From NCBI GenBank assembly GCA_030679895.1, contig JAUXSN010000039.1, positions 34,128 to 98,127 of the forward strand: a stretch of 64,000 nt of DNA, in the 5' to 3' direction. This DNA comes from Candidatus Moraniibacteriota bacterium. Its GTDB lineage: Bacteria > Patescibacteriota > Minisyncoccia > Moranbacterales > UBA11712. Each line of letters opens with the position of its first letter. The first letter of the stretch is position 1. This document shows, one piece after another, positions 1,168 through 61,464 of this stretch. The notes under the pieces are model-generated. The model saw only the letters and a list, made by a program, of their open reading frames with translations, made no database searches and was not told where the DNA came from. Made by a program: the position numbers and the translations under genes.

Positions 1168-1170
1168 TTT

Positions 1171-5336: not shown

Positions 5337-5362
5337 TTTTTCTAAAGCTTCGCCTTAATGAC

Positions 5363-5390
5363 GCTTCCCAACATCCGATGTTGGGAAGCG
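5363..5390. terminator. Perfect palindromic hairpin (cgcttcccaacatc|cgatgttgggaagcg) immediately after gene 4341-5336
   Basis: A 13-bp inverted repeat sits 27 nt after the stop codon. Its stem sequence CCCAAC..GTTGGG is related to the dispersed REP-like palindromes. Confidence 0.5.
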
Positions 5391-5841
5391 ATTCAGATTC
5401 TTCTTGCAGCTTCTCTTAATTATGCCATAAAATTGGTGAAGGGGTGAAGTTATCCACATATTGGCTTGCTTTTTGCGGCACAGTTTGCTTTTATAAAGAC
5501 AGAAACAAAAAAGAAAAAAGAAGATTTTCAGGAAGAGGACTTCTTTTTATTTTGCAAAAACAATAAAAACAATGCTTATGCTCAATAAAAAGCATAACTT
5601 AAAAAAGGCCGGTCTAAAGTTGTCACAATAGTGGCGGGTTTGGATTGGCTTTTTTGTTTTCTCAAAATTCAAATGGGAAAATAAAAATTAAGCAGCTGAA
5701 TAATTTATGCCCTCTTAACGAGGGCGGTCTGGAGGAGGGCCTAAAAGATTTGTTGCTTATCAAAAAAAAGCCTTGAAAGGTCGAAGGCGACTGGCTGCCT
5801 CAAATGCGGGAAATAATAATTGGTAAAAATTAATTAAAACT

Positions 5842-12826: not shown

Positions 12827-14551
12827 ATGATACATACAGCGATAAAAATTAAAAATAAAAGCATGAAAAAAACAGCAATGTTTGCGCTTGCGTTTGTTTT
12901 TCTCCTTGGGACAACAGGCGTAATCGCAAAAAACAACGGAGACGGCAAGAATTTTCACAAGCCTCTCCAAGTGAACAAGGAGAAAGTGAAGCATTTTGCA
13001 AAGAAACCGATTTCTAACAGCGACCGGAAAAGAGGGGATTTGCTCGAGGAGATGATAATCAAGGAAAAACCCGCCAACGTTAAACCGGCACCCACCGATC
13101 CCACTTCCGGAGGAGTGACCGGAAATCTGGGTGACCAAATGGAACCTGGCGAAGGCAAAAAATATGCCATCGTGATCGGGCTTGCCAACTATCCCGGGAC
13201 GAGCATAGTCGAAAGCGACGAGATCCTCCCTGATTTGTGCGTATCGCCAATCGCGGAAAATGACGCTTCGGTATATGAAGGGACGAACGAAGTAAAAGCC
13301 AACTGCAAAGACGGTGACAGCGTGAATATGGAAAAGACTTTGATCGAAAAATACGGCTTCGCGCCGAGCAATGTTTTTCGCTTGAGCGATTCAGAAGCCA
13401 CATTTTCTGCAATCGAAGAAAAAATAATGTACTTAGTCGGAGGAATAGATAGCAAGGAATTTAATCACACAGGAATTTTGAAACCGGAAGACGAATTAGT
13501 ATTCTTTTTCAGCGGTCATGGAGCTTTGAGTGAGGATGATAGTATTGATGGGGACATTGACGAAAATGACGATGGAGGCATTGTTGTCTATGACGAAGAG
13601 TATAGTGATGATTCATACATGAGCACAGATCCTGCGTCTACGTACGCAGCAGACTATAACAAAAATGGCTATAGTGACAGTGCCTACATCTGGGACGGCC
13701 AATTGCGAGCGTGGTTTGCGAACGCTGCCACTGACCGGATTTTCTTCGCCTTTGACACCTGCCGCGCGGAAGAAATGGATGATTTGGTATGGACGGATAT
13801 CTATAGGACCACAAAGGAACCAGACCGCGTTCTCGCTTTCTCCAGCGGGAAAGAAGAAAGTTCCTATACCTACTATCTCGGTGGGGCCAATAATAGTGGC
13901 AATATTCACGACAGCGAAGGCCTATTCTCGCACTATTTCGTTTTGCGGGCGATGTATGACGGATATGCGGACGGATTCAATCCCATCAATAAACGGAGCA
14001 AGGATCCTCTCAAATACGACGGCAAGGTGGCAGTGGAAGAAGCTTTCAGCTATGCCTATCCGCTGGTGAGAGAAGCGTCAAGCAATAACCAAACGCCGCA
14101 TCTCGATGATCTTTTCACAAATGACCTTCTGTTGGGAACGCCGCCGGAATTGGTGAAAACTGTGTATGTTTACGCAAACAATAGCGAAGAAACAGCACCT
14201 TATACTTTGAAGAGCGGCGTGAAATATCTTCTGGAAGCAAGCAAAGTTGCCGCAGCCGACGAAACTAACACGATTCGTTTTGACGCCAAATATTCAACCA
14301 ATACCACGACTGGTCTTTGGACAGATCTGGTTGATCAATCTTATGCGGACGCTACAATCTATCCAACGCTTTTGGAATTGTTTATGAACGACGCATCTGT
14401 CGATTGGGGAGAATACAACGACGAACATAAGTACAGAAAGGAAGTGACTGGCAGCGACTCTTTGCTCCCCTCCGTGAACTTCAAAATCAACGACACTGAT
14501 TATTCTGACAACAGCGAAGAGTTGCTAGTTAAAATTTATCAATTAGACTAA
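12827..14551 (+). CDS. Secreted clan-CD cysteine peptidase (caspase/metacaspase-like, C14)
   Basis: A signal peptide (MKKTAMFALAFVFLLGTTGVIA) is followed by KKYAIVIGLANYP, FFFSGHG (catalytic His) and FAFDTCRAE (catalytic Cys), which are typical of Peptidase_C14. The start may instead be the internal Met at 12863. Confidence 0.6.
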   Translation: MIHTAIKIKNKSMKKTAMFALAFVFLLGTTGVIAKNNGDGKNFHKPLQVNKEKVKHFAKKPISNSDRKRGDLLEEMIIKEKPANVKPAPTDPTSGGVTGNLGDQMEPGEGKKYAIVIGLANYPGTSIVESDEILPDLCVSPIAENDASVYEGTNEVKANCKDGDSVNMEKTLIEKYGFAPSNVFRLSDSEATFSAIEEKIMYLVGGIDSKEFNHTGILKPEDELVFFFSGHGALSEDDSIDGDIDENDDGGIVVYDEEYSDDSYMSTDPASTYAADYNKNGYSDSAYIWDGQLRAWFANAATDRIFFAFDTCRAEEMDDLVWTDIYRTTKEPDRVLAFSSGKEESSYTYYLGGANNSGNIHDSEGLFSHYFVLRAMYDGYADGFNPINKRSKDPLKYDGKVAVEEAFSYAYPLVREASSNNQTPHLDDLFTNDLLLGTPPELVKTVYVYANNSEETAPYTLKSGVKYLLEASKVAAADETNTIRFDAKYSTNTTTGLWTDLVDQSYADATIYPTLLELFMNDASVDWGEYNDEHKYRKEVTGSDSLLPSVNFKINDTDYSDNSEELLVKIYQLD

Positions 14552-14779: not shown

Positions 14780-15478
14780 ATGTCCGATGACAATCAAAAG
14801 ATAATTGAAGAAGCTGAAGCGTTTATCAAAGAGCACAAGAAAAGTCTGATTGCTCGCTTTGCTGATCCGGAAAAGTATCATTCAGTTGAACATCCGATTT
14901 CGCTTTTTATGGCTGGCTCCCCAGGCGCTGGCAAGACCGAAGTTTCCAAGCGGCTCATTGAGCAGTTCGCTGACAACGCTCCTGTAAGAATTGATGCGGA
15001 TGATATCCGCGAAATGTTTCCGAGCTACACTGGCGTCAATTCGCATATTTTCCAGCGCGCCTGCACGACAGGCGTCAATAAGCTATTCGATTATGTTTTG
15101 GATCACAAGCTCAATGTCATCCTGGATGGAACTTTCGCCTATGAGCGGGCGATGGAAAATATCGAGCGGTCTTTGAAGCGCGATCGGCGCGTTATCATCT
15201 ATTATCTTTTTCAGGATCCGGTCATCGCTTGGAAATTCACCAAAATTCGCGAGGAAACCGAGGGTCGCCGGGTTTCAAAAGAAGTTTTTATTTGCTCTTT
15301 TCTCCGTGCTCGTGAAAATGTAAATGAGGCCAAAGCGCATTTTGGCGAAAAAATTGAATTAAACATGATTATCAAGGATTTCACCAACAATTTCGAGAAA
15401 GTTTTTTCGAATATTGGGAGTATTGATAAATATCTGCCAAGGGTGTATACTAAAAACGAACTTGAAAAAATATTATGA
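14780..15478 (+). CDS. Zeta-toxin family P-loop kinase
   Basis: The Walker A motif MAGSPGAGKT, the RIDADDIRE region and DGTF match the Zeta_toxin (UNAG kinase) fold. The protein is 232 aa long. Confidence 0.7.
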   Translation: MSDDNQKIIEEAEAFIKEHKKSLIARFADPEKYHSVEHPISLFMAGSPGAGKTEVSKRLIEQFADNAPVRIDADDIREMFPSYTGVNSHIFQRACTTGVNKLFDYVLDHKLNVILDGTFAYERAMENIERSLKRDRRVIIYYLFQDPVIAWKFTKIREETEGRRVSKEVFICSFLRARENVNEAKAHFGEKIELNMIIKDFTNNFEKVFSNIGSIDKYLPRVYTKNELEKIL

Positions 15479-48088: not shown

Positions 48089-49081
48089 TTATTTTTGTAT
48101 GTAGCGGTTAAGAATCGAAGCGAAAATTGTCCTGATAGTGTCTTTGATTGTTGCGTATGATTTCGCAGGTCTGAAATTGATAAGAGCATTATTAATGTGG
48201 ATATTTTCCACCAAACAGACGTCCTGATACTCAAGAGTGAATAAATAATATTTTCCGAGCGCTACAGGAAGGTTATCCGCATAAAAAGCGCATTTTATAT
48301 TTCCATTAGTATAATCCTTTGCTGAAATCTGGCATTGAGAGCGGTTGGCCGGAGTTATGTCATTTACGGGTATCGAATAATGTTCCGGCCATGCCTTATC
48401 CATAAAATTCGGATCAGTAATCAAGCGTTTTTGTCCGTTGAGAATGAGATAAAACGAGTGCGTTGGAAAACTTTCGAAAATAATTCCGTCCGGATGAGGA
48501 AGTGTCCAAAGAAAAACTCCCTCGTCCGCTTCCGGATATTGGTCGATCACTGATTGATCAACGTCAACCATATAATCAAAACCGTATCCAAAGGCGAGCA
48601 GTATTTCCGGTCCCGGAAAAAGGATTTTTTTGCCGTGGCTGATGAGAAAAACTCGATCCGTCGGCTTATTATGAAGCAGTGTCCCGTTGGAATATTTTGT
48701 GGAGTTGTCGATGTAGAGTAAATTTCTCAATTCATCCTGGCTGTTTATATCCGGTCCGGCGGGATAGAGAAAGGCCTGATAAGTTCTTTCGAGCGATACA
48801 ACAGGTAAATTTTCTTTACAAGATTTCTTCTCAGTCTTCTTCAGGTTCACATCCAGATTTATAATATTATTTTTCTTGAGGGGAAAAACACCGAACGAAA
48901 GTTCATTGGCGCCGGTGTCTTTTCGGATATCAAATTTGGAAAGTTTCGGCTGGCCGCTCAAATAAGCGAATTTTTCAACTGGGAAAAAGACAAGATAAAG
49001 ACCGACAATCACCACAACGACAGGAATCAGATAGATTAATATTCTTATAATTTTATAAATCTTACCAAGTGATGCTTCCAT
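48089..49081 (-). CDS. Hypothetical membrane-anchored protein
   Basis: N-terminal TM (IIRILIYLIPVVVVIVGLYLVFF); transcribed divergently from the ftsA-like gene. Confidence 0.4.
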   Translation of the reverse strand: MEASLGKIYKIIRILIYLIPVVVVIVGLYLVFFPVEKFAYLSGQPKLSKFDIRKDTGANELSFGVFPLKKNNIINLDVNLKKTEKKSCKENLPVVSLERTYQAFLYPAGPDINSQDELRNLLYIDNSTKYSNGTLLHNKPTDRVFLISHGKKILFPGPEILLAFGYGFDYMVDVDQSVIDQYPEADEGVFLWTLPHPDGIIFESFPTHSFYLILNGQKRLITDPNFMDKAWPEHYSIPVNDITPANRSQCQISAKDYTNGNIKCAFYADNLPVALGKYYLFTLEYQDVCLVENIHINNALINFRPAKSYATIKDTIRTIFASILNRYIQK

Positions 49082-49221
49082 GGCCTCATGTTAGCTAATT
49101 AGTCCGGTTTCTGTCAAAGATTAAGCGGCTCGAAAAAATAAACTTTTCGGCTTTCCAAAAAAAACTTTGCCTTTTCGTTATTTTTTAGTATAATTAAATC
49201 AAGAACAAAGAACAAAAGAAT

Positions 49222-50484
49222 ATGGGAATATTCTCGAAAATTTTTAGGCGGCGCGGGGCAGGCCATGCGTTGGCTTTGGATATTGGAACCGAAGTGGTCA
49301 AGGCTTTGATTTTTAAGATTGACGAAGAATCAGAGAAAGGGATTGTGGCCGGCGTGGGGCGGGCCCGGCAGCGCCTGGGCGATATGCAATCAGGGGCGGT
49401 GAGCGATATTTCAGGGGTTGTCAGTTCCTGCGAAGAAGCTATCGCAAAAGCGGAAGAGATGGCGGGAGCCAGGAGGGTGGAACAAACGATTATGGGAATT
49501 GCCGGAGAATTGGTCAAGGGTTCAACAACCACCGTTCATTACGAGCGCTTAAAACCGGAAATCAGGATTGATCTTCCGGAACTTAAAAATATTATTCAAA
49601 AGGTCCAGTGGAAAGCTTTTGACCGCATTCGCCAGCAGTTAGCCTGGGAAACAGGACACAGCGAAATTGATGTAAAGCTGATCAACGCCGCGATCGTGGA
49701 TGTGCGAATAGACGGTTATCGGGTGACAAATCCTCTTGGATTTCAGGGAAGGGACGTTTCTATCGGAGTTTTTAACGCTTATGCGCCGATGGTTCATCTG
49801 GGCGCTCTTCAAAAAATTGCCGAGGAACTCGATCTTGATCTCTTAAGCATTGCCGCCGAGCCTTACGCGGTAGCAAGATCTATGGGACTGGAAAATACCG
49901 TTGATTTTAGCGCTATTTTTATCGATGTGGGAGGAGGAACGACCGATATAGCGCTGGTCAGAAATGGAGGCCTTGAGGGAACGAAAATGTTCGCGCTGGG
50001 AGGAAGAGCTTTTACCAAGCGTTTGGCCCAGGAGCTGAATATCAGTTTTGAAGAAGCGGAGCAGCTGAAAATAAGGTACGGCCGGGGAGAAACGGGAAGG
50101 GACGTCAGCGCGAGAATAAACAAGCTGCTCGAGGAAGATTGCCGGGTATGGCTGGACGGGATAGAGCTTTCTTTGAGCGAATACGCGGATTCCGACTTAC
50201 TGCCGAATAAAATTCTTCTTTGCGGAGGAGGATCGGCGCTGCCGGGGATCAAAAACGCCCTTCTTGACAAGGCATGGCTAAGAAACCTCCCTTTTTCAAA
50301 AATTCCTTCGATAAGTTTTCTTCAGCCGAAAGATGTTGTTAATATCCAGGATACCACGGGGCTTCTCCGGGATCCGCAGGACGTTACTCCTATGGGACTG
50401 GCCAATCTTGCTCTTGATTTGGTAGGAGAAGAAAAAGTCTTATCGAGTATGCTCCGCCGGGCGGTTAAAATGATGCAAAATTAA
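49222..50484 (+). CDS. ftsA: Cell-division protein FtsA-like actin-fold ATPase
   Basis: LALDIGTEVVKALIF is the phosphate-1 motif, DVGGGTTDIAL phosphate-2 and LCGGGSALPGI the adenosine motif. At about 420 aa the length fits FtsA better than PilM, which is not excluded. Confidence 0.55.
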   Translation: MGIFSKIFRRRGAGHALALDIGTEVVKALIFKIDEESEKGIVAGVGRARQRLGDMQSGAVSDISGVVSSCEEAIAKAEEMAGARRVEQTIMGIAGELVKGSTTTVHYERLKPEIRIDLPELKNIIQKVQWKAFDRIRQQLAWETGHSEIDVKLINAAIVDVRIDGYRVTNPLGFQGRDVSIGVFNAYAPMVHLGALQKIAEELDLDLLSIAAEPYAVARSMGLENTVDFSAIFIDVGGGTTDIALVRNGGLEGTKMFALGGRAFTKRLAQELNISFEEAEQLKIRYGRGETGRDVSARINKLLEEDCRVWLDGIELSLSEYADSDLLPNKILLCGGGSALPGIKNALLDKAWLRNLPFSKIPSISFLQPKDVVNIQDTTGLLRDPQDVTPMGLANLALDLVGEEKVLSSMLRRAVKMMQN

Positions 50485-50488
50485 AATC

Positions 50489-52450
50489 ATGTCTCACAAA
50501 ACAATCTACATTGATATAGACGAAGAGATAACTTCTGTTATCGACAGGATGAGGAAAGCCGAGGCCGGCGAGGTGATTATTGTCGCTCCCAAAAGAGCTT
50601 TGCTTTTGCAGAGCCTGGTTAATTTAAAACTGCTGAAGAAAGAAGCTGATCGTCGGAAAAGGCGTATTATGATTGTGACCCAGGACAAGATTGGAAAAAA
50701 ACTGATAGAAAAGGCGGGAATACTGGCTCATGGCAAAGTTGATGATTCGATGGCAGACAATGGCGAGACAGAAGAACCGGCGATAAAAGGAAAACAGCTG
50801 ATTAAAAATCAGGAATTGATTGAAAACATTGAAGGCGAGCAGGAAGAAGAACCTGTCGGGTCGGACAGCTATTTTGACGAACCCTTGAAAACGGAGGCGA
50901 GCCGGGAAGCTGCCAGTCCCGGAGAAGGATTGAAAAACAGCAATATTGACAAGATTCAATTTGAAATTCCCGCTTTTGAAAAAACAGAAAATATCCAATC
51001 CAAAAGCGCGAAAAGGGACAGCGCAAGAAAGGTAAAAGATCGCGGAAAACCTGATAAATCCGTGCAAATGTCGGATATTGTCGCCGGCTCCAAACCAAAA
51101 TCCAAAAGAAAAGAAGAAAATATCGTGGAAAAAAAAGATGAGGAAAATTATGAAACTGAAAAAACGCCTTTGGGATCCGGACAATTTTATAAAAAATCAG
51201 GCCATGATCCGCATTTCGAGAATCAAACGGAAAAGTTTTTCAGCGGAACCTCGATTATGAAGGAGACAGTTTCCCGCCGAAAAGCCGGAAAATTAAACGA
51301 AAGAAGGCTCAAAGGCAAAGTTGGCCGGTACTTTGTTTTTTTCGCCATAGCCATCGTTGTTTTGGGCGGCCTTGCTCTTGCGTACTATTACTTTCCGAAA
51401 GCGAAAATAACGCTTTATTTAAAGAGCCAGGTAAAAAGCAGTTCCGTTGATATCGAGGCGAGCCTTTCAGCGGCTGGAGTCAAAGGAGAAGAAGGAATAG
51501 CGCCGGCAAAACTGGAACAGCTGGAAAAAGAAAAAAAGGAAGAATTCAACGCCACGGGAAGCAAAAACGGCGGCGGGAAAGCAATCGGAAAAGTGGTAAT
51601 ATATAATGATTTTAGCGCGGATAACCAGCCCCTTGTCAGCACTACCCGCCTGGAAACGGCTGATGGGAAAATATTCAGAATCACCAAATCAATCATTGTT
51701 CCCGGAATGACAAAAGTTGGAACGGAAACGAAGTCCGGGGCAATCGAAGTTGATGTCGTGGCTGATAAAGCCGGGCGCGAATATAATATCGATCCGGCCG
51801 ATTTCAAAATACCGGGCTTTAAGGGCGGACCGAAATTTGATAAATTTTATGCCAGATCCGCGAAAGCCATGACTGGCGGATCAACCGGAGAAACACCACT
51901 TGTATCATCCCAAGATATCAGCCAGGCGAAAGAAAAAATAATCGCGGAGGCTAAAGAGGAAGCTATCCGGGATTTGAAACAAAGCCTTCCGGCCGAAAGA
52001 AAAATTTTTGATGATTCGGTGGTTGTGGAGCTGGAAAGCGCGGCTCCTTCAGCAGCCGCGGGAACGGAAACAGATAAGTTTTTTTATACCGTTAAAGTAA
52101 GAGCGAAAACCATTTCTTTTTCAGAAGATGATGTGAAAGAAATAATCAGAATGAAAACAGATGAAAATCGGGAAGGAACGATTAGTTTCAAAACCCCCCT
52201 GAATTACATGCTTTCGGAGGAAAATCTGGAAAAAGGATACGTGAAATTTGAAGTAAAAACGGATCTGGAAACAGCCGGTGACATTGATCTTGAAAATTTC
52301 AGGAAGGGAGTGCTGGGAAAGAATTCAGATGAAATAGCGTCTTTTGCCAAGGCGTACCCGGCCGTTTTGAAAGCAGACGTAAGCTTCTGGCCTTTTTTCA
52401 CCACTCGCGCGCCGATGAATGAAAAGAGGGTGGAAATTGAGATAAAATAG
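50489..52450 (+). CDS. Hypothetical bitopic membrane protein (cytoplasmic N-domain, K/E-rich linker, one TM, ~340-aa extracytoplasmic domain)
   Basis: TM at YFVFFAIAIVVLGGLALAYYYF. The last 54 nt of the gene are duplicated at 59237-59290. Confidence 0.45.
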   Translation: MSHKTIYIDIDEEITSVIDRMRKAEAGEVIIVAPKRALLLQSLVNLKLLKKEADRRKRRIMIVTQDKIGKKLIEKAGILAHGKVDDSMADNGETEEPAIKGKQLIKNQELIENIEGEQEEEPVGSDSYFDEPLKTEASREAASPGEGLKNSNIDKIQFEIPAFEKTENIQSKSAKRDSARKVKDRGKPDKSVQMSDIVAGSKPKSKRKEENIVEKKDEENYETEKTPLGSGQFYKKSGHDPHFENQTEKFFSGTSIMKETVSRRKAGKLNERRLKGKVGRYFVFFAIAIVVLGGLALAYYYFPKAKITLYLKSQVKSSSVDIEASLSAAGVKGEEGIAPAKLEQLEKEKKEEFNATGSKNGGGKAIGKVVIYNDFSADNQPLVSTTRLETADGKIFRITKSIIVPGMTKVGTETKSGAIEVDVVADKAGREYNIDPADFKIPGFKGGPKFDKFYARSAKAMTGGSTGETPLVSSQDISQAKEKIIAEAKEEAIRDLKQSLPAERKIFDDSVVVELESAAPSAAAGTETDKFFYTVKVRAKTISFSEDDVKEIIRMKTDENREGTISFKTPLNYMLSEENLEKGYVKFEVKTDLETAGDIDLENFRKGVLGKNSDEIASFAKAYPAVLKADVSFWPFFTTRAPMNEKRVEIEIK

Positions 52451-52460
52451 CGATTGGGGG
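52407..52460. repeat. Left copy of 54-bp direct repeat (gcgcgccgatgaaTgaaaagagggtggaaattgagataaaatagcgattggggg)
   Basis: Matches 59237-59290 at 53 of 54 positions and is co-linear with the 3' end (APMNEKRVEIEIK*) of gene 50489-52450. Confidence 0.85.
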
Positions 52461-52546
52461 GCTGGTTTTGCTCATCGCGATAAGCAGATAATTGCTTGTT
52501 TAATGATACTATAAAGTTATAGAAATCATCATTTTTAACGAAAAAT

Positions 52547-53572
52547 ATGAAAACTCAAGAAACAATCAAAAAAATCGAAGAATCGAGAGGGTCAAGAGTT
52601 GTAACCTATGTCACCAGCGATCGGCAAGGGCCGGTGAATGCCCGGGTGGCAATGGATATTATTCCAATTATCAGTAATCAACTGCGGAAAATTGGAAAGC
52701 AAGACAAGATTGATTTGGTGCTGTATAGCTCCGGCGGCGACACGATGGTGCCGTGGCGCTTGGTTTCTATGATCCGCGAGTATTGCGACCACTTTTCGGT
52801 TCTCGTGCCATATAAGGCTCACAGCGCCGCGACAATGATCGCTTTGGGTGCCGATGAAATAGTAATGAGCGATATGTCCGAACTCTCGCCGATTGATCCC
52901 TCAACCGCCAATGTTTTCAATCCCGTCGATCCACAAAATCCGCAAAACAGAATTCCGATCAGCGTGGAAGATGTTATGGCATATTTCGATCTGGCAAAAA
53001 ACAAATTCGGAATCAAAAGCGATGAGGAATTGACGGAAATATTCAAAAAATTTATCGACAGCAATCCTTCAATTCATCCTCTGGCTCTCGGAAATGTCAA
53101 TCGCACGCATAATCTGATCAAAATTCTCGCGAAGCGACTCTTGAAAAGCCATAAGGCGCCGATGAAAGAGGATGAGATTGAAAAAATAATTGAATTCTTA
53201 ACGGAAAAACTTTATTCACATCAATATTATATTGGTCGCAAAGAAGCTAAAGATGATCTTGGAATAAAGTCCGTTGTTTTCGCGGACAAAGAACTTTCTG
53301 ATCTGATGTCGGAACTTTATGAGGAATACAAACAAGAAATGAAAATGACAGAAATCTGGAATCCGGAAACAGAACTCGGCGAAAATCAGGTGATGAACAA
53401 GAAAGTTTACAAAATCGCTTATGTCGAGAATGCGGAAATCAGCAATTATTTTGAGGTAAATATGGAATTTAAGAAAGTTCAACAAAACGTTGCCCAGCAA
53501 ACTACAATAGGCCCAATAAATATCCCGCAGGAGCAAATTGTGTGGAGAATGATTGGGCAGGGGTGGAAATAA
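52547..53572 (+). CDS. ClpP/crotonase-fold serine protease of the SDH (serine dehydrogenase proteinase) / S49-like family
   Basis: EESRGSRVVTYVTSDRQG, LVLYSSGGDTMVPWRLVSMIRE, AHSAATMIALGADEIVM and LSPIDPS match the SDH_sah pattern (catalytic Ser in AHSAAT). Confidence 0.55.
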   Translation: MKTQETIKKIEESRGSRVVTYVTSDRQGPVNARVAMDIIPIISNQLRKIGKQDKIDLVLYSSGGDTMVPWRLVSMIREYCDHFSVLVPYKAHSAATMIALGADEIVMSDMSELSPIDPSTANVFNPVDPQNPQNRIPISVEDVMAYFDLAKNKFGIKSDEELTEIFKKFIDSNPSIHPLALGNVNRTHNLIKILAKRLLKSHKAPMKEDEIEKIIEFLTEKLYSHQYYIGRKEAKDDLGIKSVVFADKELSDLMSELYEEYKQEMKMTEIWNPETELGENQVMNKKVYKIAYVENAEISNYFEVNMEFKKVQQNVAQQTTIGPINIPQEQIVWRMIGQGWK

Positions 53573-53602
53573 AGGAAAAAGGGCTGGACAGAAAAAACGA
53601 GA

Positions 53603-53635
53603 GTGATATAATATCACTATATCACTATGATATCA
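53603..53635. promoter_or_regulatory. Tandem palindromes gtgatataatatcac and atgatatcat (shared TGATAT half-site) overlapping a TATAAT box
   Basis: A perfect 15-bp palindrome and a perfect 10-bp palindrome lie about 35 nt upstream of ATG 53671. They look like an operator overlapping the -10 region. Confidence 0.4.
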
Positions 53636-53670
53636 TGCGAAAATCCTCTAACAATTAACATTTTATATCT

Positions 53671-54144
53671 ATGAACTATAATTTTACTATCTATTCGGAC
53701 CAAGAAAAATTATCCACGACCTCTAATATAAGCAATGGCGGGTGGGTTAATCTTAATCTTGGATATCTGCCTATTTCCATTGGAGATCGCGTCGAAGCGG
53801 CTTATGTGGCTAAAGTCGAAATAAATACAAGCTCCACTTTGGATGATGACAACACCACAAATAATATCGGTAGTTATGAAAAAATCGAAAGTGCGTTATT
53901 AAATAACAGCAATACTTTTTTTGAGAACGATTTTTTCCCCAGCTTTGTATACGGAGTCAATTATTCTTGGGATAATAACAAGCTTCTAAATTTTGATTTA
54001 ACTGAGATCGAAAAAATAGATATTTCTTGTGCCAGCGATTTGCAAGATAGAGGCAATTATGTTCGTTTTATCCTTGGAAAAAGTAATAATTCTTTGCAAG
54101 CTGCTTTGAAGTTTTGTCGGATTCCTTTTTGGATTCATAAATAA
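53671..54144 (+). CDS. Hypothetical protein (island cargo)
   Basis: A 157-aa Asn-rich product from a coding region of about 30% GC. No motif recognised. Confidence 0.4.
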   Translation: MNYNFTIYSDQEKLSTTSNISNGGWVNLNLGYLPISIGDRVEAAYVAKVEINTSSTLDDDNTTNNIGSYEKIESALLNNSNTFFENDFFPSFVYGVNYSWDNNKLLNFDLTEIEKIDISCASDLQDRGNYVRFILGKSNNSLQAALKFCRIPFWIHK

Positions 54145-54161
54145 AATTAAAACATAAATAT

Positions 54162-54851
54162 ATGGAGCCTACAATTAAAAAAATACAAACGGCGATCTTT
54201 ATTAAGAATTTTCAGATTCAGAATGAGTATGAAAAATCTAATTTATTACTTGATTCAAAAGAAAAAATTGGTGATATTTTTGATGGTCAGCCAATCTTAA
54301 TTCCTGCACCAAACGAAATGCCGCCTGAAATTCCGAGGATTGTTTTAAATAGCGCTGATAATTTGTTTTCATGCAATATCGCTCTGAATCGAACTGATAT
54401 TTTTTTTAATTCTGCTAATAGCAAAGAGAAAGATGTAAATATCATATTGGAAAAACAAAAAACAAATTCCCTTAGAGTATTTGATTTTCTGAAAGAAAAA
54501 AACGTTATCATAAATAGAATTGGTTTCGTTGTTGATGTTGAGTATGCAATTGAAAATGCCATAGAATTTTTGAAGGCAGAATTCATTAATGAAAATAAGT
54601 TTGAAAGTCCCAAAGAACTTTCATTTAGATATAATAGAAGTAGTATTATCGAGGAAATTAATATTCCGATGAATAATTTGGTAACCGTGTCAGGAAAAAA
54701 TGATAGCAATGTTATTCAAATTCAACTTGATATCAATACTGTTTCCGAAATTATGAGTTCGAGTGATTTTTCAAAAGAATATTTTGATAAGATAATTACA
54801 TATTCGGAAAATAAAATAAATTCTATTATTAAAGAATTTCCTAATTTATAA
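54162..54851 (+). CDS. Hypothetical protein (island cargo)
   Basis: A 229-aa product from a gene tightly spaced with its neighbours. No motif recognised. Confidence 0.4.
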   Translation: MEPTIKKIQTAIFIKNFQIQNEYEKSNLLLDSKEKIGDIFDGQPILIPAPNEMPPEIPRIVLNSADNLFSCNIALNRTDIFFNSANSKEKDVNIILEKQKTNSLRVFDFLKEKNVIINRIGFVVDVEYAIENAIEFLKAEFINENKFESPKELSFRYNRSSIIEEINIPMNNLVTVSGKNDSNVIQIQLDINTVSEIMSSSDFSKEYFDKIITYSENKINSIIKEFPNL

Positions 54852-54853
54852 AA

Positions 54854-55366
54854 ATGGCTGATCAAAAAAAGAAGAGGAAAACTTCTACGGTTGAAGAAGA
54901 GCCATCTCCCTCACAGACTCCACAAGCAGAAGATTCTTTGCAGGTTTTAGCGTATGAATTAGCCAAGAAAACAAAGGAAGATTTTGACGAATTTAAAATA
55001 AACTCGAAAAGCCCAGAATGGGCTCAAAAATTAATAGATTCTCAACTCAGTTTGCAGAGGGTTATGAGAATTATTTTTTGGTTATTTTTTACTTTTTTAG
55101 TGTTTGTAATAATATCTTTTATTCTCTTTTCTGTGTTCGAGCTCAATAATCTACTTAATGTCCTGGAATATATTAGAGATAGTAAAAGAATGGAACAAAG
55201 CGATGAAATATTAAAACAGTATAATCAATTATTTTTTTATTGCAAAAGCATTACGACTTTCTTCGCATCAGTAATCGGAACTCTTGGAATTATTGGCTTT
55301 TTTATTTTTATATTCACAAAAGTTTCCGAAAATTTAACAAAAAATATTATTAATAAAGATAAATAG
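54854..55366 (+). CDS. Hypothetical two-TM membrane protein (island cargo)
   Basis: A charged N-terminal region is followed by TM helices at IIFWLFFTFLVFVIISFILFSVF and FFASVIGTLGIIGFFIFIF. The stop is adjacent to the mod start. Confidence 0.45.
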   Translation: MADQKKKRKTSTVEEEPSPSQTPQAEDSLQVLAYELAKKTKEDFDEFKINSKSPEWAQKLIDSQLSLQRVMRIIFWLFFTFLVFVIISFILFSVFELNNLLNVLEYIRDSKRMEQSDEILKQYNQLFFYCKSITTFFASVIGTLGIIGFFIFIFTKVSENLTKNIINKDK

Positions 55367-56934
55367 TGCCCACACTAAACTGGATCGGCAAGGAAGCGGT
55401 TGTGAATCATGACAAAGAAGTTCCGTTCAAGCTTCTTCGGAAAGTGAAATCCGCTTCGGTCGGTGAAAATTCGCAAAACTTGATTATGCACGGGGACAAT
55501 CTTGAGGCGCTGAAAGCCCTCATGCCTTTTTATGTTGAAAAAATAAAATGCATATACATTGATCCGCCATATAATACCGGAAATGAAAAATGGGTGTATA
55601 ACGATAAATTAAATTCTCCGAAAGTCAAAAAATGGATAGGAAAAGTCGTCGGGAATGAAAAAGAAGATTTGAGCAGGCATGATAAATGGTTATGCATGAT
55701 ATATCCACGATTAAAATTACTAAAGGATTTACTTAAAGAAGATGGGGTTATATTTATTTCCATTGATGACAATGAACACTGCAATCTTAAACACGCAATG
55801 GATGAAATCTTTGGGGAGGAAAATTTTGTTTGCAATATAATCTGGCAAAAAAAATACTCACCTCAAAATGATGCTAAATATTTCTCTAATATGCACGACT
55901 TTATAGTTGTTTACGCAAAAAAGAAAAATACCAACGGATACATTGGTGGTTGGACAAGAAATCTTATGAATAGAAGCGAGAAGCAAAATGCGAGATATAA
56001 AAATCTCGATGACGATCCAAGGGGAATTTGGAAACCAAGTGATTTATCAGTAAAAACATATTCAGCTTCGACGGATTATCCTATAAAAACTCCAAGCGGA
56101 AGAATTGTTAATCCACCGGCGGGATATTGTTGGCGCGTAACGAAAGAAAAGTTTGAAGAGATGGTAAAAGATAATCGCATATGGTTTGGAAAAGAAAAAA
56201 GCAATGTTCCATCAATCAAACGATTTTTATCTGATGTTCAGCAAGGAATCGTTCCAAGCACAATTTGGTTCAGAGAAGATGTCGGAGATAATCAAGAAGC
56301 AAGCAAAGAAATAAAAGAATTATTCAAGGATTCTGATTTTCCATTTGAAACACCGAAGCCAGTTCGACTGATAAAGCGTATCATTGAAATAGCCTCACAA
56401 AATGGCGATATTTTTCTAGATTCTTTCGCCGGCTCTGGCACAACCGGACACGCGGTTTTAGATTTGAATAAGGAAGACGGCGGGAATCGAAAATTTATTT
56501 TAGTTGAAATGGAGGATAAAGTCGCGAAAGATATTACTGCCGAAAGAGTGAAAAGAGCGATCAAGAAATACGATTATAAAGACGGTTTTGAATATTGTGA
56601 ATTGGACAAGCCGCTGTTCAACGAACACGGAAATATTGAAGGGACGTGCGACTTCAGCCAATTCGCGACCTATATTTATTTCACCGAAACGCAGACAAAC
56701 ATCGACAAGAAAAAAATCAAAGGCAATCTTGTCGGAGAATATAACAATGTTGATTATTATTTGATCTATAAAGGAAAAAATAAAAATGTTTTGGACAAAG
56801 CATTTTTGAAAAAAATAAAGAAAAGCGAGAATAAAAAAGTCATCTATGCAGATTGGTGTTCGATTGACGATGATATTTTGGAAAAATACAATATTGAGTT
56901 CAAGCAAATTCCTTATGAAGTAAAAGTTTATTAA
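55366..56934 (+). CDS. mod: Type III restriction-modification DNA methyltransferase (Mod; N6-adenine, beta-class)
   Basis: HGDNLEALKAL is followed by DPPYNTG (motif IV), and then DSFAGSGTTGHAV (motif I) lies C-terminal to it. This IV-then-I order is beta-class. A Res helicase-nuclease gene starts 2 nt downstream. Confidence 0.75.
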   Translation: MPTLNWIGKEAVVNHDKEVPFKLLRKVKSASVGENSQNLIMHGDNLEALKALMPFYVEKIKCIYIDPPYNTGNEKWVYNDKLNSPKVKKWIGKVVGNEKEDLSRHDKWLCMIYPRLKLLKDLLKEDGVIFISIDDNEHCNLKHAMDEIFGEENFVCNIIWQKKYSPQNDAKYFSNMHDFIVVYAKKKNTNGYIGGWTRNLMNRSEKQNARYKNLDDDPRGIWKPSDLSVKTYSASTDYPIKTPSGRIVNPPAGYCWRVTKEKFEEMVKDNRIWFGKEKSNVPSIKRFLSDVQQGIVPSTIWFREDVGDNQEASKEIKELFKDSDFPFETPKPVRLIKRIIEIASQNGDIFLDSFAGSGTTGHAVLDLNKEDGGNRKFILVEMEDKVAKDITAERVKRAIKKYDYKDGFEYCELDKPLFNEHGNIEGTCDFSQFATYIYFTETQTNIDKKKIKGNLVGEYNNVDYYLIYKGKNKNVLDKAFLKKIKKSENKKVIYADWCSIDDDILEKYNIEFKQIPYEVKVY

Positions 56935-56935
56935 T

Positions 56936-59197
56936 ATGCAACTAAAAAAATACCAGCAAAAAGCCATTGAGAATCTCAGCGAATATTTAAAAAGGGTCGA
57001 GGAAACCGATCCAAAGACGGCTTTTATTTATGCCGCTGAAATGCCCTATAATTCCGATTTTTACGGCGACGTTCCTTTTGTTTGCGTGAAAATTCCAACC
57101 GGCGGCGGAAAAACTTTAGTCGCTTGCCATGCGGTCGCGAAGATTATGCAGACAATTCTCAAAAACAAAATGGATCGGGGAATTGTGATGTGGTTTGTGC
57201 CGTCTGAAGCCATAAAAAGCCAAACACTTCGAAAACTGAAAGACAGAACCGATTGGCACAGAAAAGCTCTGGATGAAGCTTTTGAAAATAAAGTTAGAAT
57301 TTTTTCTAACGAAGAAGCCTTGCGAATCAGGAAAGAGGATGTTTCCGACAATATTTGCGTTGTCATTTCCAGCTTGGACGCTTTTCGGAAAGAAAAGCAG
57401 AAGCGGGGAAAATATAAAGTATATCAGGAAAACGGGTCGCTCTTGAGCCATTTTGAGAATATGAAAGATGATAAGGCTTTGGAAAAAGACGAGCAGAAAA
57501 CAGTCATCAATTCCTTGGCGAATGTTGTCCGAATGAGCAACCCTCTTGTTGTTCTTGATGAGGGCCAACGAGTGCAATCCTTCATTTCAATCGAATTTAT
57601 CAAAGACTTAAATCCAAGCTTTATTATTGAATACACTGCGACTCCTCGAAGCGGAAGCAATATTTTGGTGGATATTCATTCCGGAGAATTGAAAGAAGAA
57701 GAAATGGTGAAAATCCCGATAGTTCTTGAAAGTTCGCTGCATTGGGAGCAATCAACCGAGGCGGGAATAAAAAAACGAAAAGAGCTCGAAAAAATTGTCA
57801 AAAAAAGCGGGGAATATATCCGTCCGATTGCTCTTTTCCAAGCCGAGCAGGAAAAAGAAAGTGAAAAAAAGATAACCGTTGGAAAGATAAAAGAATTTTT
57901 GATGAAAGCAGGAATTCATGAAGACGAAATCGCAATCAAGACTGCGAGCCGCAATGATATTGAAAACGTCAATCTTTTCAGCAAAAAGTGCAAAATAAAA
58001 TATATTATTACCGTTAATGCTCTGGCAGAAGGTTGGGACTGCTCTTTTGCTTACATTTTGGTTTCGGTTGCCAATATTGGCTCAAAAATTGCTGTGGAGC
58101 AGATAATCGGCCGGATTATGCGGATGCCGAATGCCAAGAGAAAGAAAGACGAAGATTTGAACAGATGCTATGTTTTTGCTTCGGCTAGAAATTTCAACGA
58201 AGCAGCCAATCAAATAATTTCCGGACTTGAGAAAAATGGATACAGCCGCGGCGATGTTATCAACGCCAACCAAAAAAATCAGAAAGACGAGTTTGTGATC
58301 GAAAGAAGGGTTCGAAAAGATTTTTCTGTTCCTATTATGTCCCTTGAGGGCGATAAATTATCTTTCGAAGATTTGGTTGGTGAAAATTTTGAACTTGCCA
58401 AGCAAAACCATGAGTTTGAATTCACGACGCACTATGACAGCGATGGCAGGGCAATTATTGATATTAAAGATGACAAATGGGTGCGAGGCATTCAGCAAAA
58501 TTTGAATTTGAATTATGGCGACAAAAATTTCACGAAAGTCGAGCTGGTCAACTGGCTGGACCGAAAACTTCACTTCACAATTCTTGAGCAGAAAGACAAG
58601 AGGGCTTTTCTTGAAAAGGCTGTTGATTATCAGCTGAAAAGTTTCAGCGTTACGGATCTTTCGGTCAATCGCTATGTTTTTATGGCAAGATTGGACGAAG
58701 TAATTCACAATCTTTTGGAGGAATACGCCAAGAAAAGGTTTGATAAATTTATTGCCAATAAGAAAATTATCTTGAAAAATTTTGATAAATTTCCGGAAAA
58801 AATAATCATCAATCAGGAAATTCCGGAGGAATTCGGCAAAAACTATTATCAAAAGATTGATAAACTGAATAAAGAGGAATTATCTTTCATTGAGAGAATT
58901 GACCTTGATTCTTTGCCGAATGTAGAATTTTGGATCAGAAATCGTGAAAAGAAAGACCCTTTTTATATCCAAGGATGGCGAAAAGGAAAATTCTATCCCG
59001 ATTTTGTTGTACTCACGAAAAAAGGAAACATTGTGGCTTGCGAGTGGAAAGGCGAGGATAGAATCAGCAATGATGATACGAAATACAAGGAAGAAATCGG
59101 AAAAATTTGGGAAAGTTTAGGAAAAGGGAAAACGCATTTCTTTCTGGCGAACAATAAAAATGTCGAGGAAGTTTTGAGTGGGATAAAAAAATTGTAG
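56936..59197 (+). CDS. res: Type III restriction enzyme Res subunit (SF2 helicase + PD-(D/E)xK nuclease)
   Basis: The helicase motifs are IPTGGGKT (motif I), VLDEGQR (motif II) and QIIGRIMR (motif VI). The C-terminal region has IDLD...EFWIRN...YPDFVV...EWKGE, which is nuclease-like. Confidence 0.7.
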   Translation: MQLKKYQQKAIENLSEYLKRVEETDPKTAFIYAAEMPYNSDFYGDVPFVCVKIPTGGGKTLVACHAVAKIMQTILKNKMDRGIVMWFVPSEAIKSQTLRKLKDRTDWHRKALDEAFENKVRIFSNEEALRIRKEDVSDNICVVISSLDAFRKEKQKRGKYKVYQENGSLLSHFENMKDDKALEKDEQKTVINSLANVVRMSNPLVVLDEGQRVQSFISIEFIKDLNPSFIIEYTATPRSGSNILVDIHSGELKEEEMVKIPIVLESSLHWEQSTEAGIKKRKELEKIVKKSGEYIRPIALFQAEQEKESEKKITVGKIKEFLMKAGIHEDEIAIKTASRNDIENVNLFSKKCKIKYIITVNALAEGWDCSFAYILVSVANIGSKIAVEQIIGRIMRMPNAKRKKDEDLNRCYVFASARNFNEAANQIISGLEKNGYSRGDVINANQKNQKDEFVIERRVRKDFSVPIMSLEGDKLSFEDLVGENFELAKQNHEFEFTTHYDSDGRAIIDIKDDKWVRGIQQNLNLNYGDKNFTKVELVNWLDRKLHFTILEQKDKRAFLEKAVDYQLKSFSVTDLSVNRYVFMARLDEVIHNLLEEYAKKRFDKFIANKKIILKNFDKFPEKIIINQEIPEEFGKNYYQKIDKLNKEELSFIERIDLDSLPNVEFWIRNREKKDPFYIQGWRKGKFYPDFVVLTKKGNIVACEWKGEDRISNDDTKYKEEIGKIWESLGKGKTHFFLANNKNVEEVLSGIKKL

Positions 59198-59236
59198 ACT
59201 TTCCTTACACTTAGTAAACCACAATAATCCGGAAAA

Positions 59237-59290
59237 GCGCGCCGATGAACGAAAAGAGGGTGGAAATTGAGATAAAATAGCGATTGGGGG
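59237..59290. repeat. Right copy of 54-bp direct repeat
   Basis: Identical to 52407-52460 except T to C at position 14. It retains the ...APMNEKRVEIEIK* coding remnant. Confidence 0.85.
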
Positions 59291-59320
59291 CGCTATTTCC
59301 GCCTGTTGGGATAGTCTGGG

Positions 59321-59350
59321 TTGACAAAAAAAAATAAAACCGTTAATATA
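59321..59350 (+). promoter_or_regulatory. Candidate sigma70-type promoter for the infA-rpmJ-rpsM operon (TTGACA-17-TAATAT)
   Basis: TTGACA at 59321-59326 and TAATAT at 59344-59349 are 17 nt apart. Confidence 0.45.
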
Positions 59351-59482
59351 CATAAAGAGATCAAAAAAAGCCGAAAAATACAGTCATTCAAGCAATCGGA
59401 TTGAAGTGCCCTATAAAATCGCTTTTAAAAAAGCAGGGCATTGGCCTTTGTTTTAATATTGGGCGTTTCAGACAACGCAACT

Positions 59483-59701
59483 ATGTCAAAAGAGAAAGAA
59501 ATTATAAAACTTCAGGGCTTGGTCAAGGAGACTCTGCCCAATACAACCTTTCGGGTTGAACTGGAAAACGGCCATGAGATACTGGCCCATATATCAGGCC
59601 GAATGAGGGTGAATTATATCCGGCTTCTCCCCGGTGACGGGGTTATGGTTGAAATGAGTCCGTATGATCTTACTAAAGGAAGAATAGTCAAAAGATTGTA
59701 A
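59483..59701 (+). CDS. infA: Translation initiation factor IF-1
   Basis: [69 protein letters not shown] is a canonical IF-1 S1-fold sequence. The start was set at the internal Met, because the track start at 59441 adds 14 non-conserved residues. Confidence 0.8.
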
Positions 59702-59716
59702 TTTACAGAAAATTTT

Positions 59717-59830
59717 ATGAAAGTTCGCGCGTCCGTCAAAAAAATTTGTAATAAATGCAAAGTCATAAAAAGGAAAGGAAAACTTTTTGTTATTTGCAGT
59801 GTGCCAAAACACAAGCAAAGGCAAGGATAA
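59717..59830 (+). CDS. rpmJ: 50S ribosomal protein L36 (below ORF-track cutoff)
   Basis: The translation [37 protein letters not shown] is a canonical L36 zinc ribbon. Confidence 0.85.
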
Positions 59831-59849
59831 TTTTTACGCGACATAGTTT

Positions 59850-60239
59850 ATGGCAAGAATCGCCGGGGTATCCATACCTGATGACAAAAGAATAGAAATT
59901 TCCCTGACTTACATACACGGGATAGGGAAATCAAGAAGCGGCAAAATACTGGCTGCTTTAAAATTGGATCCGAACACGAGAGCTAAGGATCTTGACGAAA
60001 GCGTGGTTAACAGCCTGAAGGATTATATTGAGAAAAATTTTACCATCGAAGGCGAACTGAAGCATCAAAAACAGACGAATATAAAAAGATTGAAAGATAT
60101 CGGATGCTATCGCGGAACGAGACATATGAAAGGATTGCCGGTACGAGGGCAAAGGACAAAGACCAACACAAGAACGGTCCGCGGCAATATCAGAAAGACG
60201 GCCGGAAGCGGACGAAAATCGTCAACGGAAAAAACGTAG
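59850..60239 (+). CDS. rpsM: 30S ribosomal protein S13
   Basis: [30 protein letters not shown]...[15 protein letters not shown] is present. Confidence 0.9.
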
Positions 60240-60272
60240 TCTCTGCGAATTTATTTGTAAAATTTTTAAATA

Positions 60273-60818
60273 GTGACCAAGAAAGAAGAGAAAATCAATA
60301 ATAAACCGGAACTAATTGATGAAAAATCAGAGGTTGTTGTTATTGAAAAAAACGCGGCGGAAGTAAAGAAAGATGCTGGAAAAAAAGAATCCGCCTCTTC
60401 GGCGGACATGGCGGAAGGGGAAACCGCGGAAAAGAAACCGATTGTCAAGAAAAAGAAAAAAATTCGCCGGCAGATTCTCAAAGGCCAGGCTCATGTAAAA
60501 TGCAGTTATAACAACACAATCGTCGCTTTTTCGGATCTTAGCGGAAAAATTTTATCCTGGTGCAGCGCCGGATCGCTCGGATTCAAGGGGGCGAAAAAAG
60601 CGACTCCTTATGCCGCCACTCAAATAGTGAACACGGCCGCTGAAAAGGTCGCGAAATACGGATTGCGCGACATTGATGTTTACGTAAAAGGGGTGGGATC
60701 AGGAAGGGAAGCTTCAATCAGGGCTCTGGCTAACAATGATTTTGAGATAACATTAATTAAGGACATAACCCCGATTCCGCATAACGGATGCCGGCCTAGA
60801 AAACCGAGAAGGGTATAA
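60273..60818 (+). CDS. rpsK: 30S ribosomal protein S11 with ~50-aa K/E-rich N-terminal extension
   Basis: The core GQAHVKCSYNNTIVAFSDLSGKILSWCSAGSLGFKGAKKATPYAA...RPRKPRRV is present. The alternative start at Met46 (60408) would remove most of the extension. Confidence 0.8.
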   Translation: MTKKEEKINNKPELIDEKSEVVVIEKNAAEVKKDAGKKESASSADMAEGETAEKKPIVKKKKKIRRQILKGQAHVKCSYNNTIVAFSDLSGKILSWCSAGSLGFKGAKKATPYAATQIVNTAAEKVAKYGLRDIDVYVKGVGSGREASIRALANNDFEITLIKDITPIPHNGCRPRKPRRV

Positions 60819-60825
60819 AAAAATA

Positions 60826-61464
60826 ATGAGCAGTAATTCCAATAAAAAATGCCGGCTTTGCCGCCGAGCCAAAGAAAAGCTTTTTTTGAAAGGCGATCGT
60901 TGCGGCACGCCTAAATGCGCCATGGTTCGGCGCGCTTATCCGCCCGGCGTCCACGGAGCCAAAGGAAAGAAAGCGCTTAGCGAATTCGGCCAGCAGCTTC
61001 TTATGAAGCAAAAAATCAAAAGGATATATAATGTCCTGGAGAGGCAGTTCAAGAAATATTTTAAAGAAGTCCAGAATAAACCGGGTGTTACCGGAGATTT
61101 ATTGCTGCAAAAACTGGAAATGAGGCTTGATAACGCGGTCTATAGAGCAGGTCTGGCAGCGAGCAGAAGGCAAGCCCGCCAAATTGTTATGCATTCCCAT
61201 TTTTTTGTTAACGGCAAGCGAGTGAATATACCGTCTTATGAAGTGAAAGCCGGGGATCTAGTGGAAGTGAAGCAAAATAAGATAAATAAAGGATATTTTC
61301 TCAAAACAGCCGAGATCCTAAAAGGCAAGAAAGGGATGAAATTGCCTTCCTGGTTCGAAGTGAATACTGAAAAAATGTCGATTTTGATCAAGTCAAAACC
61401 CGCCAAGGAGGATTTGAATATAGATGTTGACGCCCAAATGGTAGTTGAATATTATTCAAGATAA
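60826..61464 (+). CDS. rpsD: 30S ribosomal protein S4
   Basis: The CRLCRRAKEKLFLKGDRCGTPKC zinc finger and the S4 domain (LDNAVYRAGLAASRRQARQIV) are present. Confidence 0.9.
   Translation: MSSNSNKKCRLCRRAKEKLFLKGDRCGTPKCAMVRRAYPPGVHGAKGKKALSEFGQQLLMKQKIKRIYNVLERQFKKYFKEVQNKPGVTGDLLLQKLEMRLDNAVYRAGLAASRRQARQIVMHSHFFVNGKRVNIPSYEVKAGDLVEVKQNKINKGYFLKTAEILKGKKGMKLPSWFEVNTEKMSILIKSKPAKEDLNIDVDAQMVVEYYSR

Follow-up and report, generated by a model that had tools for sequence, protein, structure and literature searches.

How can a complete restriction-modification (R-M) system enter a chromosome when neither an integrase nor a transposase gene is recognized in the DNA that carries it? The question is raised by a 64,000-nucleotide stretch of DNA from a Candidatus Moraniibacteriota bacterium (GenBank assembly GCA_030679895.1, contig JAUXSN010000039.1, forward-strand positions 34,128 to 98,127), referred to below as the window, in whose numbering all coordinates are given. 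Between positions 52461 and 59236 the window carries an insert of 6776 nt with six co-oriented genes, which is enclosed by two copies of a 54-bp direct repeat at 52407-52460 and 59237-59290. Comparison with related genomes showed that the insert is a lineage-specific insertion, a horizontally acquired 6.8-kb defence islet.

The insertion and its empty site

A preliminary description of this DNA, made from the sequence and a list of open reading frames (ORFs), had reported the 54-mer at both positions with a single T/C difference. A search of the window confirmed this, exactly two copies occurring within the 64 kb; a match was found in none of 100 dinucleotide-preserving shuffles. The copies are identical at 53 of 54 positions and the sole mismatch, T/C at repeat position 14, is synonymous, AAT and AAC both encoding Asn. 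The left copy starts within an Arg codon, at its second base, and comprises the last 13 codons and stop codon of the gene at 50489-52450, as was stated earlier and as the ORF list and the sequence show, together with 10 nt of 3' sequence. Unrelated sequence stands before the right copy, which lies 39 nt past the stop codon of the last islet gene (res) and is a non-coding remnant of the same gene end. Target gene, repeats and islet genes are all on the plus strand.

The insert has a GC content of 35.9% compared with 44.0% for the rest of the window, the lowest of any 6.8-kb stretch in it. The preliminary description had given a value of about 30%; the insert is indeed AT-rich, but that figure fits only its middle, since about 28-30% GC is reached only around 53750-55250. 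By gene, the protease is close to the host value (41.8%), the genes for the 229-aa and 170-aa proteins are at 27-30%, and mod and res are at 36-39%. The non-coding DNA at the left end of the insert, 5' of the protease gene (59 nt, 52488-52546), had a DNA match in no fetched locus except L002, a contig from a sample that also holds the exact target protein of the window. The 39 nt of non-coding DNA at the right end (59198-59236) had no match elsewhere. Terminal inverted repeats linking the two ends of the islet were not found.

The target gene encodes a 653-aa protein that belongs to no Pfam family; a hypothetical protein with the identical sequence occurs in a Candidatus Moranbacteria metagenome-assembled genome (MAG). 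The 381 homologs of the protein are all in Moranbacteria or Parcubacteria MAGs, and in the Moranbacteria relatives examined the gene comes after ftsA. The family conserves the C-terminal peptide that the repeat encodes, with the consensus FWPFFVxRVPMxEKRVxIExK. On the other side of the islet, the native spacer, which starts at 59291, is followed by a match to a promoter, TTGACA-17-TAATAT, at 59321-59349, behind which the operon infA-rpmJ-rpsM-rpsK-rpsD-rpoA-rplQ begins; the ribosomal-protein operon noted previously just outside the islet is thus identified gene by gene. Because the islet is bounded by the terminator-like hairpin of the 653-aa gene on one side and by the infA-rps promoter on the other, both flanking transcription units are intact.

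The preliminary description had proposed that an empty site in a relative would show the target gene, a single 54-mer and then the downstream promoter. This arrangement was found at base level in four relatives, L003, L004, L018 and L176, whose target proteins are 87, 76, 75 and 67% identical to that of the window. Each reads gene end, single 54-mer, short spacer, TTGACA promoter and infA, the native spacer being joined directly to the 54-mer. In L003 the flanks are contiguous, the left being 89.8% identical through position 2105 of that locus and the right 93.9% identical from position 2106. Gene maps of two further relatives (P0004 and P0006, 70% and 58% identical) place infA directly after the target gene. 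Furthermore, in a scan of 80 fetched Moranbacteria loci, one genome per species, the gap between the target gene and infA was 145-430 bp in about 50. The target gene of L003 has an in-frame TAA at positions 1913-1915, where the window has GAA, and the called protein is 593 aa long; homology nevertheless runs on to the normal end, and the TAA is either a pseudogene mutation or a sequencing error.

The same spot is occupied by 1-5.3 kb of other cargo in seven relatives (L017, L090, L053, L045, L082, L084 and L086) and is a recurrent insertion site for variable genes. The cargo includes an N6_Mtase/Methylase_S fusion in L017 (11998-15746), a DpnI-family enzyme with a methylase fragment in L090 (11911-14011), an APH-type kinase in L053 and a TPR protein in L084. 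No repeat of the target gene 3' end was found at these seven sites, where there were only chance matches of at most 12 nt and, in L053, one unrelated 22-nt repeat; no integrase was detected at them. Among the occupied sites at this spot, only that of the window is flanked by repeats. A search of metagenome contigs with a degenerate core of the 54-mer gave no match in a collection that lacks the JGI-derived L003 and L004. An additional trace of the boundary came from L178, a Logan unitig from another sample (SRR22387966) whose infA protein is identical to that of the window. The first base of L178 coincides with that of the 54-mer, and the unitig continues unbroken into native spacer. The assembly graph may thus branch at this boundary in a second, independent population as well, although the branch to be expected at the far end of the repeat is missing.

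The left repeat and the arrival of the islet

Searches of Pfam, NCBIfam and PADLOC placed none of the six islet proteins in a family of recombinases or transposases, in agreement with the earlier statement that the islet encodes no tyrosine or serine recombinase, and Pfam matched no recombinase among the long ORFs scanned in window positions 1-49081. The earlier suggestion that a recombinase might be hidden among the three ORFs without assigned function is unlikely: the 229-aa protein has a predicted TBP/AdoMetDC-like fold, the 170-aa protein crosses the membrane several times, and the 157-aa ORF has no match to a family or solved structure. The repeats had also been described as a classical attL/attR signature. 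They do restore the end of the interrupted gene, with its conserved C-terminus and stop codon, and no integrase accompanies them. However, site-specific integration is only one possible reading of this anatomy and the signature is overstated, because the same anatomy defines a published class of integrase-free insertions (PMC2853133). No recombinase gene lies next to the putative att sites, and use of the same site by related elements was seen neither at the seven occupied sites nor in the metagenome contig scan.

Several other kinds of element were considered and rejected. A DNA transposon was excluded by the lack of terminal inverted repeats and of a transposase, and by a duplication of 54 bp rather than less than about 15 bp. 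The 54-mer was also searched for the arms of about 11 bp around a 6-8 bp centre that would mark an element dependent on the host Xer recombinases (an integrative mobile element exploiting Xer, or a dif module), and none were present; the test is weak, the dif site of this organism not being known. The sole hairpin (arms of 8, loop of 8) can form only together with native spacer, and the left copy lacks it. A tRNA or other non-coding RNA gene as the target was rejected, there being no tRNA gene near the islet and no Rfam match in 49000-61000. A phage origin was likewise set aside. For the 229-aa protein, the GenBank phage collection gave no match and viral contigs a single weak one, and the only PHROG families matched by the islet proteins are of unknown function.

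Further evidence on the arrival of the islet comes from the DNA next to the left repeat copy, a feature overlooked in the preliminary description. Identity between the two copies drops abruptly at 52460/52461, from 98% (53/54) to the level of chance. The next 27 nt (52461-52487, GCTGGTTTTGCTCATCGCGATAAGCAG) align in register with the native spacers of relatives and end where the -35 box begins. When this stretch was compared with the spacer of L004, 19 of 27 nt were identical, a score reached by 7 of 5000 shuffles, whereas against the right-hand spacer of the window itself the match was 15 of 30 alignment columns, no better than chance (1641 of 5000 shuffles). The right-hand spacer in turn matched that of L003 in 22 of 30 alignment columns. 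The junctions also differ in their hairpins. The native hairpin AAATAGCG-attggggg-CGCTATTT (59275-59298), with an 8-bp stem and an 8-nt loop, straddles the end of the right repeat, and identity between the copies stops exactly at the end of its loop. At the left junction (52445-52487) the hairpin is another one, similar to that of L004 (GATTGG/CTGGTT, then TTTT), and a near-palindrome, GCTCATCG/CGATAAGC, lies at 52470-52485.

Judged by these alignments, both continuations read as members of one spacer family. Because the left 27 nt are nearer to the spacer of another lineage than to the window's own, the left extension is probably foreign, and the incoming DNA probably brought its own copy of the target end. 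To judge from the sequences, the abrupt loss of identity into a spacer homolog cannot result from simple copying of the local target by fill-in, nor would strict fixed-point site-specific recombination easily produce it. It is what would be expected if the incoming DNA had such a copy of its own. The possibility was considered that the target gene itself is a mosaic. This was rejected, as a sliding-window comparison with four relatives showed no mosaicism. The gene is uniformly L003-like up to 52423, and thus the foreign segment begins only past the 54-mer.

We lean, with some reserve, towards arrival by means of an incoming copy of the target end and the homologous recombination of the host. 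The incoming DNA would have carried its own copy, about 81 nt long, of the target 3' end and spacer, which it would have acquired while resident at this locus in a different Moranbacteria lineage, and the crossover with the chromosomal copy would have fallen inside the 54-nt stretch of near-identity. The event may have been a Campbell-type single crossover of a circular form or, by another route, a transfer of the whole repeat-islet-repeat block in which the crossover fell where the 54-mer ends; in both cases host homologous recombination would take the place of an element-encoded integrase. This mechanism is suggested because identity falls at 52460/52461 and yet the next 27 nt align with native spacers; if the target end was indeed carried in by the incoming DNA, recombination guided by homology is favoured. 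It is also supported by the other cargo at this locus in seven relatives, including the R-M genes of L017 and L090, without repeats or detected integrase. Several points weigh against it. Homologous recombination over only 54 bp is inefficient in model bacteria. The spacer homology is only 27 nt long and is significant against one of the three relatives tested. Moreover, the near-identity of the 54-mers could have arisen by later gene conversion, and a tyrosine recombinase acting in trans may be encoded elsewhere in the genome, of which the window covers 64 kb.

The last point leads to an alternative that is possible but rather unlikely: site-specific integration by a tyrosine recombinase that was lost or acted in trans. 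In that case the 54-mer would serve as att core, its element-borne part would restore the 3' end of the target gene, and the islet would be a decayed or trans-mobilized element resembling the cis-mobilizable elements (CIMEs). CIMEs are defined as keeping attL and attR without integration and transfer genes (PMC5704250). The direct repeats rebuild the gene 3' end as those of integrative elements that target gene ends do, and the start of L178 at the first base of the 54-mer hints at a fixed boundary. Relatives of the cargo also ride elements that bear recombinases, as a related module, that of L008, has a large serine recombinase gene on either side; however, large serine recombinases are not known to generate long direct repeats, which counts against such an origin. 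Further difficulties are the failure to detect an integrase in the islet or the scanned upstream ORFs, the seven other occupied sites, none of which has repeats or a detected integrase (0/7), and the 59 and 39 nt of non-coding DNA at the islet ends, which leave scant room for arm-type sites. The 54 nt of identity fit this host lineage, L003 differing at 3 positions and L004 at about 7, and are followed by foreign spacer. A strict fixed-point crossover is disfavoured because the host-lineage 54-mer breaks into that spacer.

Two further explanations were considered. In the published R-M insertions, Furuta et al. proposed reliance on a trait common to all R-M types, such as double-strand breakage (PMC2853133). 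Applied to this locus, breaks staggered by 54 bp, perhaps linked to the R-M system, would have been followed by the insertion of linear DNA and fill-in, so that the repeats would be a true long target-site duplication. The near-identity of the two 54-mers agrees with this, but the left end of the insert is homologous, in register, to native spacer, which a random insert would not be, and there are no terminal inverted repeats; we consider such an origin improbable. More improbable still is an assembly artefact, in which an extrachromosomal circle, or the islet of another strain, was threaded into the contig at the shared 54-mer. In its favour, the Logan assembly used here, from the sample holding the exact target protein of the window (SRR13727519, the likely source of the window), consists of k=31 unitigs, which cannot span the 40-nt exact part of the repeat. 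Its contigs break exactly there, L001 ending at 52450 and L002 starting at 52431, and the k=31 graph does not separate integrated from episomal forms. However, the deposited MAG contig of 102 kb carries both junctions, and the copies differ by a single-nucleotide polymorphism and continue into different sequences, as real attL/attR-type junctions would. An episome would, in addition, still need the 81-nt target mimic, and the biology would be nearly the same.

Cargo of the islet

The two largest genes of the islet encode an intact Type III R-M system, both subunits being full length and separated by a 1-nt gap. The modification subunit Mod (522 aa, 55366-56934) matched PADLOC MTase_III over its full length (E 1e-191) and Pfam N6_N4_Mtase (E 3e-43), and the restriction subunit Res (753 aa, 56936-59197) matched PADLOC REase_III (E 3e-87) and Pfam ResIII and DEAD. 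Upstream are the genes for a 229-aa protein (54162-54851) and a 170-aa membrane protein with three hydrophobic segments (54854-55366). The gaps between these four genes are 2, -1 and 1 nt; the last four genes of the islet are therefore packed as one operon.

The first islet gene encodes a ClpP-like SDH-type serine protease of 341 aa (52547-53572), which matched Pfam PF01972 (E 2e-15), NCBIfam Clp_like_SDH below the curated cutoff, and phrog_11747, a family of unknown function (E 3e-42). Homologs 67-81% identical occupy the same position in L005, L006 and L008. The 157-aa ORF that follows (53671-54144) matched no family, no solved structure in the PDB and no PHROG, and stands in a variable slot, which is empty in L006 and L008 and holds a non-homologous ORF in L005.

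The core gene of a widespread two-gene module is that of the 229-aa protein, which is predicted to fold as a TBP/AdoMetDC-like double domain (double beta-alpha-beta4). A profile built from 17 close homologs showed a family of 1255 clusters at 50% identity, nearly all of them 220-245 aa long. Residues R59, C71, R77, R119, E152, N171, D190, N192 and E196 of the 229-aa protein are conserved. A partner gene follows the 229-aa gene at a distance of -23 to +9 nt in all 28 non-redundant loci with a readable next gene (28/28). The product of the partner gene is a multi-pass membrane protein in the ten close relatives (10/10) as well as in the window. The window's own partner, the 170-aa gene, lies 2 nt 3' of the 229-aa gene, overlaps the start of mod by 1 nt and has a 37% identical homolog in L010. 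Within the closest clade, where the partner is a multi-pass membrane protein, a gene for an SDH/ClpP-like protease is often found upstream.

The neighbours of the family were surveyed with Pfam at 29 non-redundant loci, two genes upstream and three genes downstream. Upstream, SDH protease accounted for 7 neighbouring genes, Methylase_S for 6, N6_Mtase and Eco57I for 4 each, MmeI for 3, and N6_N4_Mtase and HSDR_N for 1 each. Downstream there were 3 neighbouring genes with PIN, 2 with N6_N4_Mtase and 1 each with Eco57I, Mrr and ResIII. HEPN, AbiEii, Abi_alpha, ParE and SNase were matched singly. Recombinases were rare, with one rve and one Resolvase, the latter in L008.

The same composite as in the window, namely protease, 229-aa protein, membrane protein, Type III Mod, an extra gene and Res, occurs elsewhere in L005 and L097; no direct repeat was found around these two composites and no integrase is visible on those short contigs. 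Flanking direct repeats were sought around the modules of L005, L006, L008, L010, L097, L101 and L104, and none were convincing. The L010 module (1-5600, GCA_030630805.1) comprises a 232-aa homolog, a 183-aa membrane partner and a 1067-aa MmeI/Eco57I-type R-M enzyme, inserted between mreC and mreD with no protease and no flanking repeats. That of L008 (5167-13048, GCA_041643175.1) has an N6_N4 methylase, a MutH-like protein, the protease, a 228-aa homolog and a 292-aa membrane protein. It is flanked by the two large serine recombinase genes, which are on the opposite strand, and may be a recombinase-borne version of the cargo.

More distant relatives were found on plasmids. A 3-kb ColE1-like mobilizable plasmid of E. 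coli (NZ_CP041118.1) has a single annotated ORF outside its backbone (L092 2288-2965), which encodes a remote homolog of the 229-aa protein (WP_023233475.1, 225 aa, 29.5% identical over 81% of the query, E 1e-9); the match recurs on 22 other small enterobacterial plasmids, including those of Salmonella and Klebsiella. On pEC3-6 (L094) the homolog is followed by a 127-aa ORF with a 4-nt overlap. In an E. coli phage-plasmid (L093 5971-6966, NZ_CP081794.1), the gene for a 39% identical SDH-type protease lies by itself on the strand opposite to its neighbours, with the lysis cassette on one side and the Q antiterminator on the other, which is where phage accessory genes (morons) are typically found.

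The preliminary description had called the cargo entirely defence-like. The intact Type III pair and the defence-type neighbourhoods agree with this; for the other genes the assignment is by association only, although as such it is well supported. A search of PADLOC-DB v2.0.0 with the protease and the 157-aa, 229-aa and 170-aa proteins gave 0 families at E <= 0.01. A joint reading can be put forward, tentatively and as rather doubtful in its entirety, in which the 229-aa protein and its partner would form an undescribed anti-phage or R-M-accessory module that stands in an operon with several R-M types, and in which the islet would also spread in Moranbacteria without a recombinase by means of a target mimic consisting of the gene end and the terminator/spacer. 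With its 1255 clusters, its link to R-M genes and its absence from PADLOC, the two-gene module is a reasonable candidate for defence screening.

Far upstream in the window there is a close-set trio of genes, which encode a RelA/SpoT-domain protein of 496 aa (11100-12590), a 574-aa protein without a Pfam match (12827-14551) and a Zeta-toxin/AAA_33 protein of 232 aa (14780-15478). The trio may be a toxin or defence cluster unconnected with the islet.

Comparison with known systems

The class that the islet resembles most closely was defined by Furuta, Abe and Kobayashi (2010, NAR 38:2428, PMC2853133) as R-M insertion with long target duplication. Their operational criteria were R and M genes within an insert of less than 20 kb, direct repeats of more than 30 bp, the absence of mobility genes, and a compared genome in which the site is empty. 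Cases were reported for Types I-IV, among them one in H. influenzae with a 46-bp repeat overlapping a gene 3' end and a second with a low-GC insert, and the mechanism was left open. The islet of the window agrees with this definition on every count. Both R and M genes are inside the insert, the 6776-nt insert and the 54-bp repeat are within the limits, there are no mobility genes among the six islet proteins or the scanned upstream ORFs and the ribosomal operon is downstream, and an empty-site genome with a single copy and contiguous flanks is provided by L003 as well as by L004, L018 and L176. The likeness extends to the lower GC of the insert, to the overlap of the repeat with a gene 3' end as in H. 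influenzae, and to Type III, which is among the reported types. Insertion of R-M gene complexes with long target duplication was reportedly also described by Nobusato et al. in 2000.

The islet also differs from the reported cases. Its host belongs to the Candidate Phyla Radiation (CPR)/Patescibacteria, for which no search for earlier cases was made, and the insert adds a four-gene module outside the R-M system. In addition, the left repeat runs into a diverged, foreign-looking spacer. The near-identity of the 54-mers would fit an origin of both copies as local duplicates, yet the left 27-nt extension is nearer to the L004 spacer than to the window's own, and the duplication may not be purely local. 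This foreign-looking extension of one repeat is the new detail with respect to the known class.

Among systems based on an integrase, the closest analogues are the CIMEs, which are derived from integrative and conjugative elements (ICEs) or integrative and mobilizable elements (IMEs) and have kept attL and attR after loss of the integrase and transfer genes (PMC5704250). The islet shares with them att-like repeats that include a protein-gene end, accessory cargo and the absence of integrase and transfer genes. However, no cognate ICE or IME of the same specificity, no tandem accretion and no link between the repeat and a recombinase were found for it. The cargo can also be compared with that of the ColE1-like plasmids, which carry the remote homolog of the 229-aa protein, followed closely on pEC3-6 by a small second ORF; the plasmid has neither the protease nor an R-M gene.

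Genomic islands with R-M systems have already been reported in Patescibacteria, where they were found by composition with IslandViewer (PMC12455944), in a text in which the terms 'direct repeat' and 'recombinase' are absent. Like those islands, the islet is horizontally acquired and compositionally deviant and brings a complete R-M system into a streamlined CPR genome; unlike them, it has an insertion point resolved to the base by means of empty sites. The locus is thus a base-resolved example of the gain of a complete R-M system by a streamlined CPR bacterium without integrase or transposase genes, and it extends the class of R-M insertion with long target duplication to Patescibacteria. Furthermore, the 27-nt continuation of the left repeat bears on the mechanism left open in 2010, as it suggests that the incoming DNA brought its own copy of the target.

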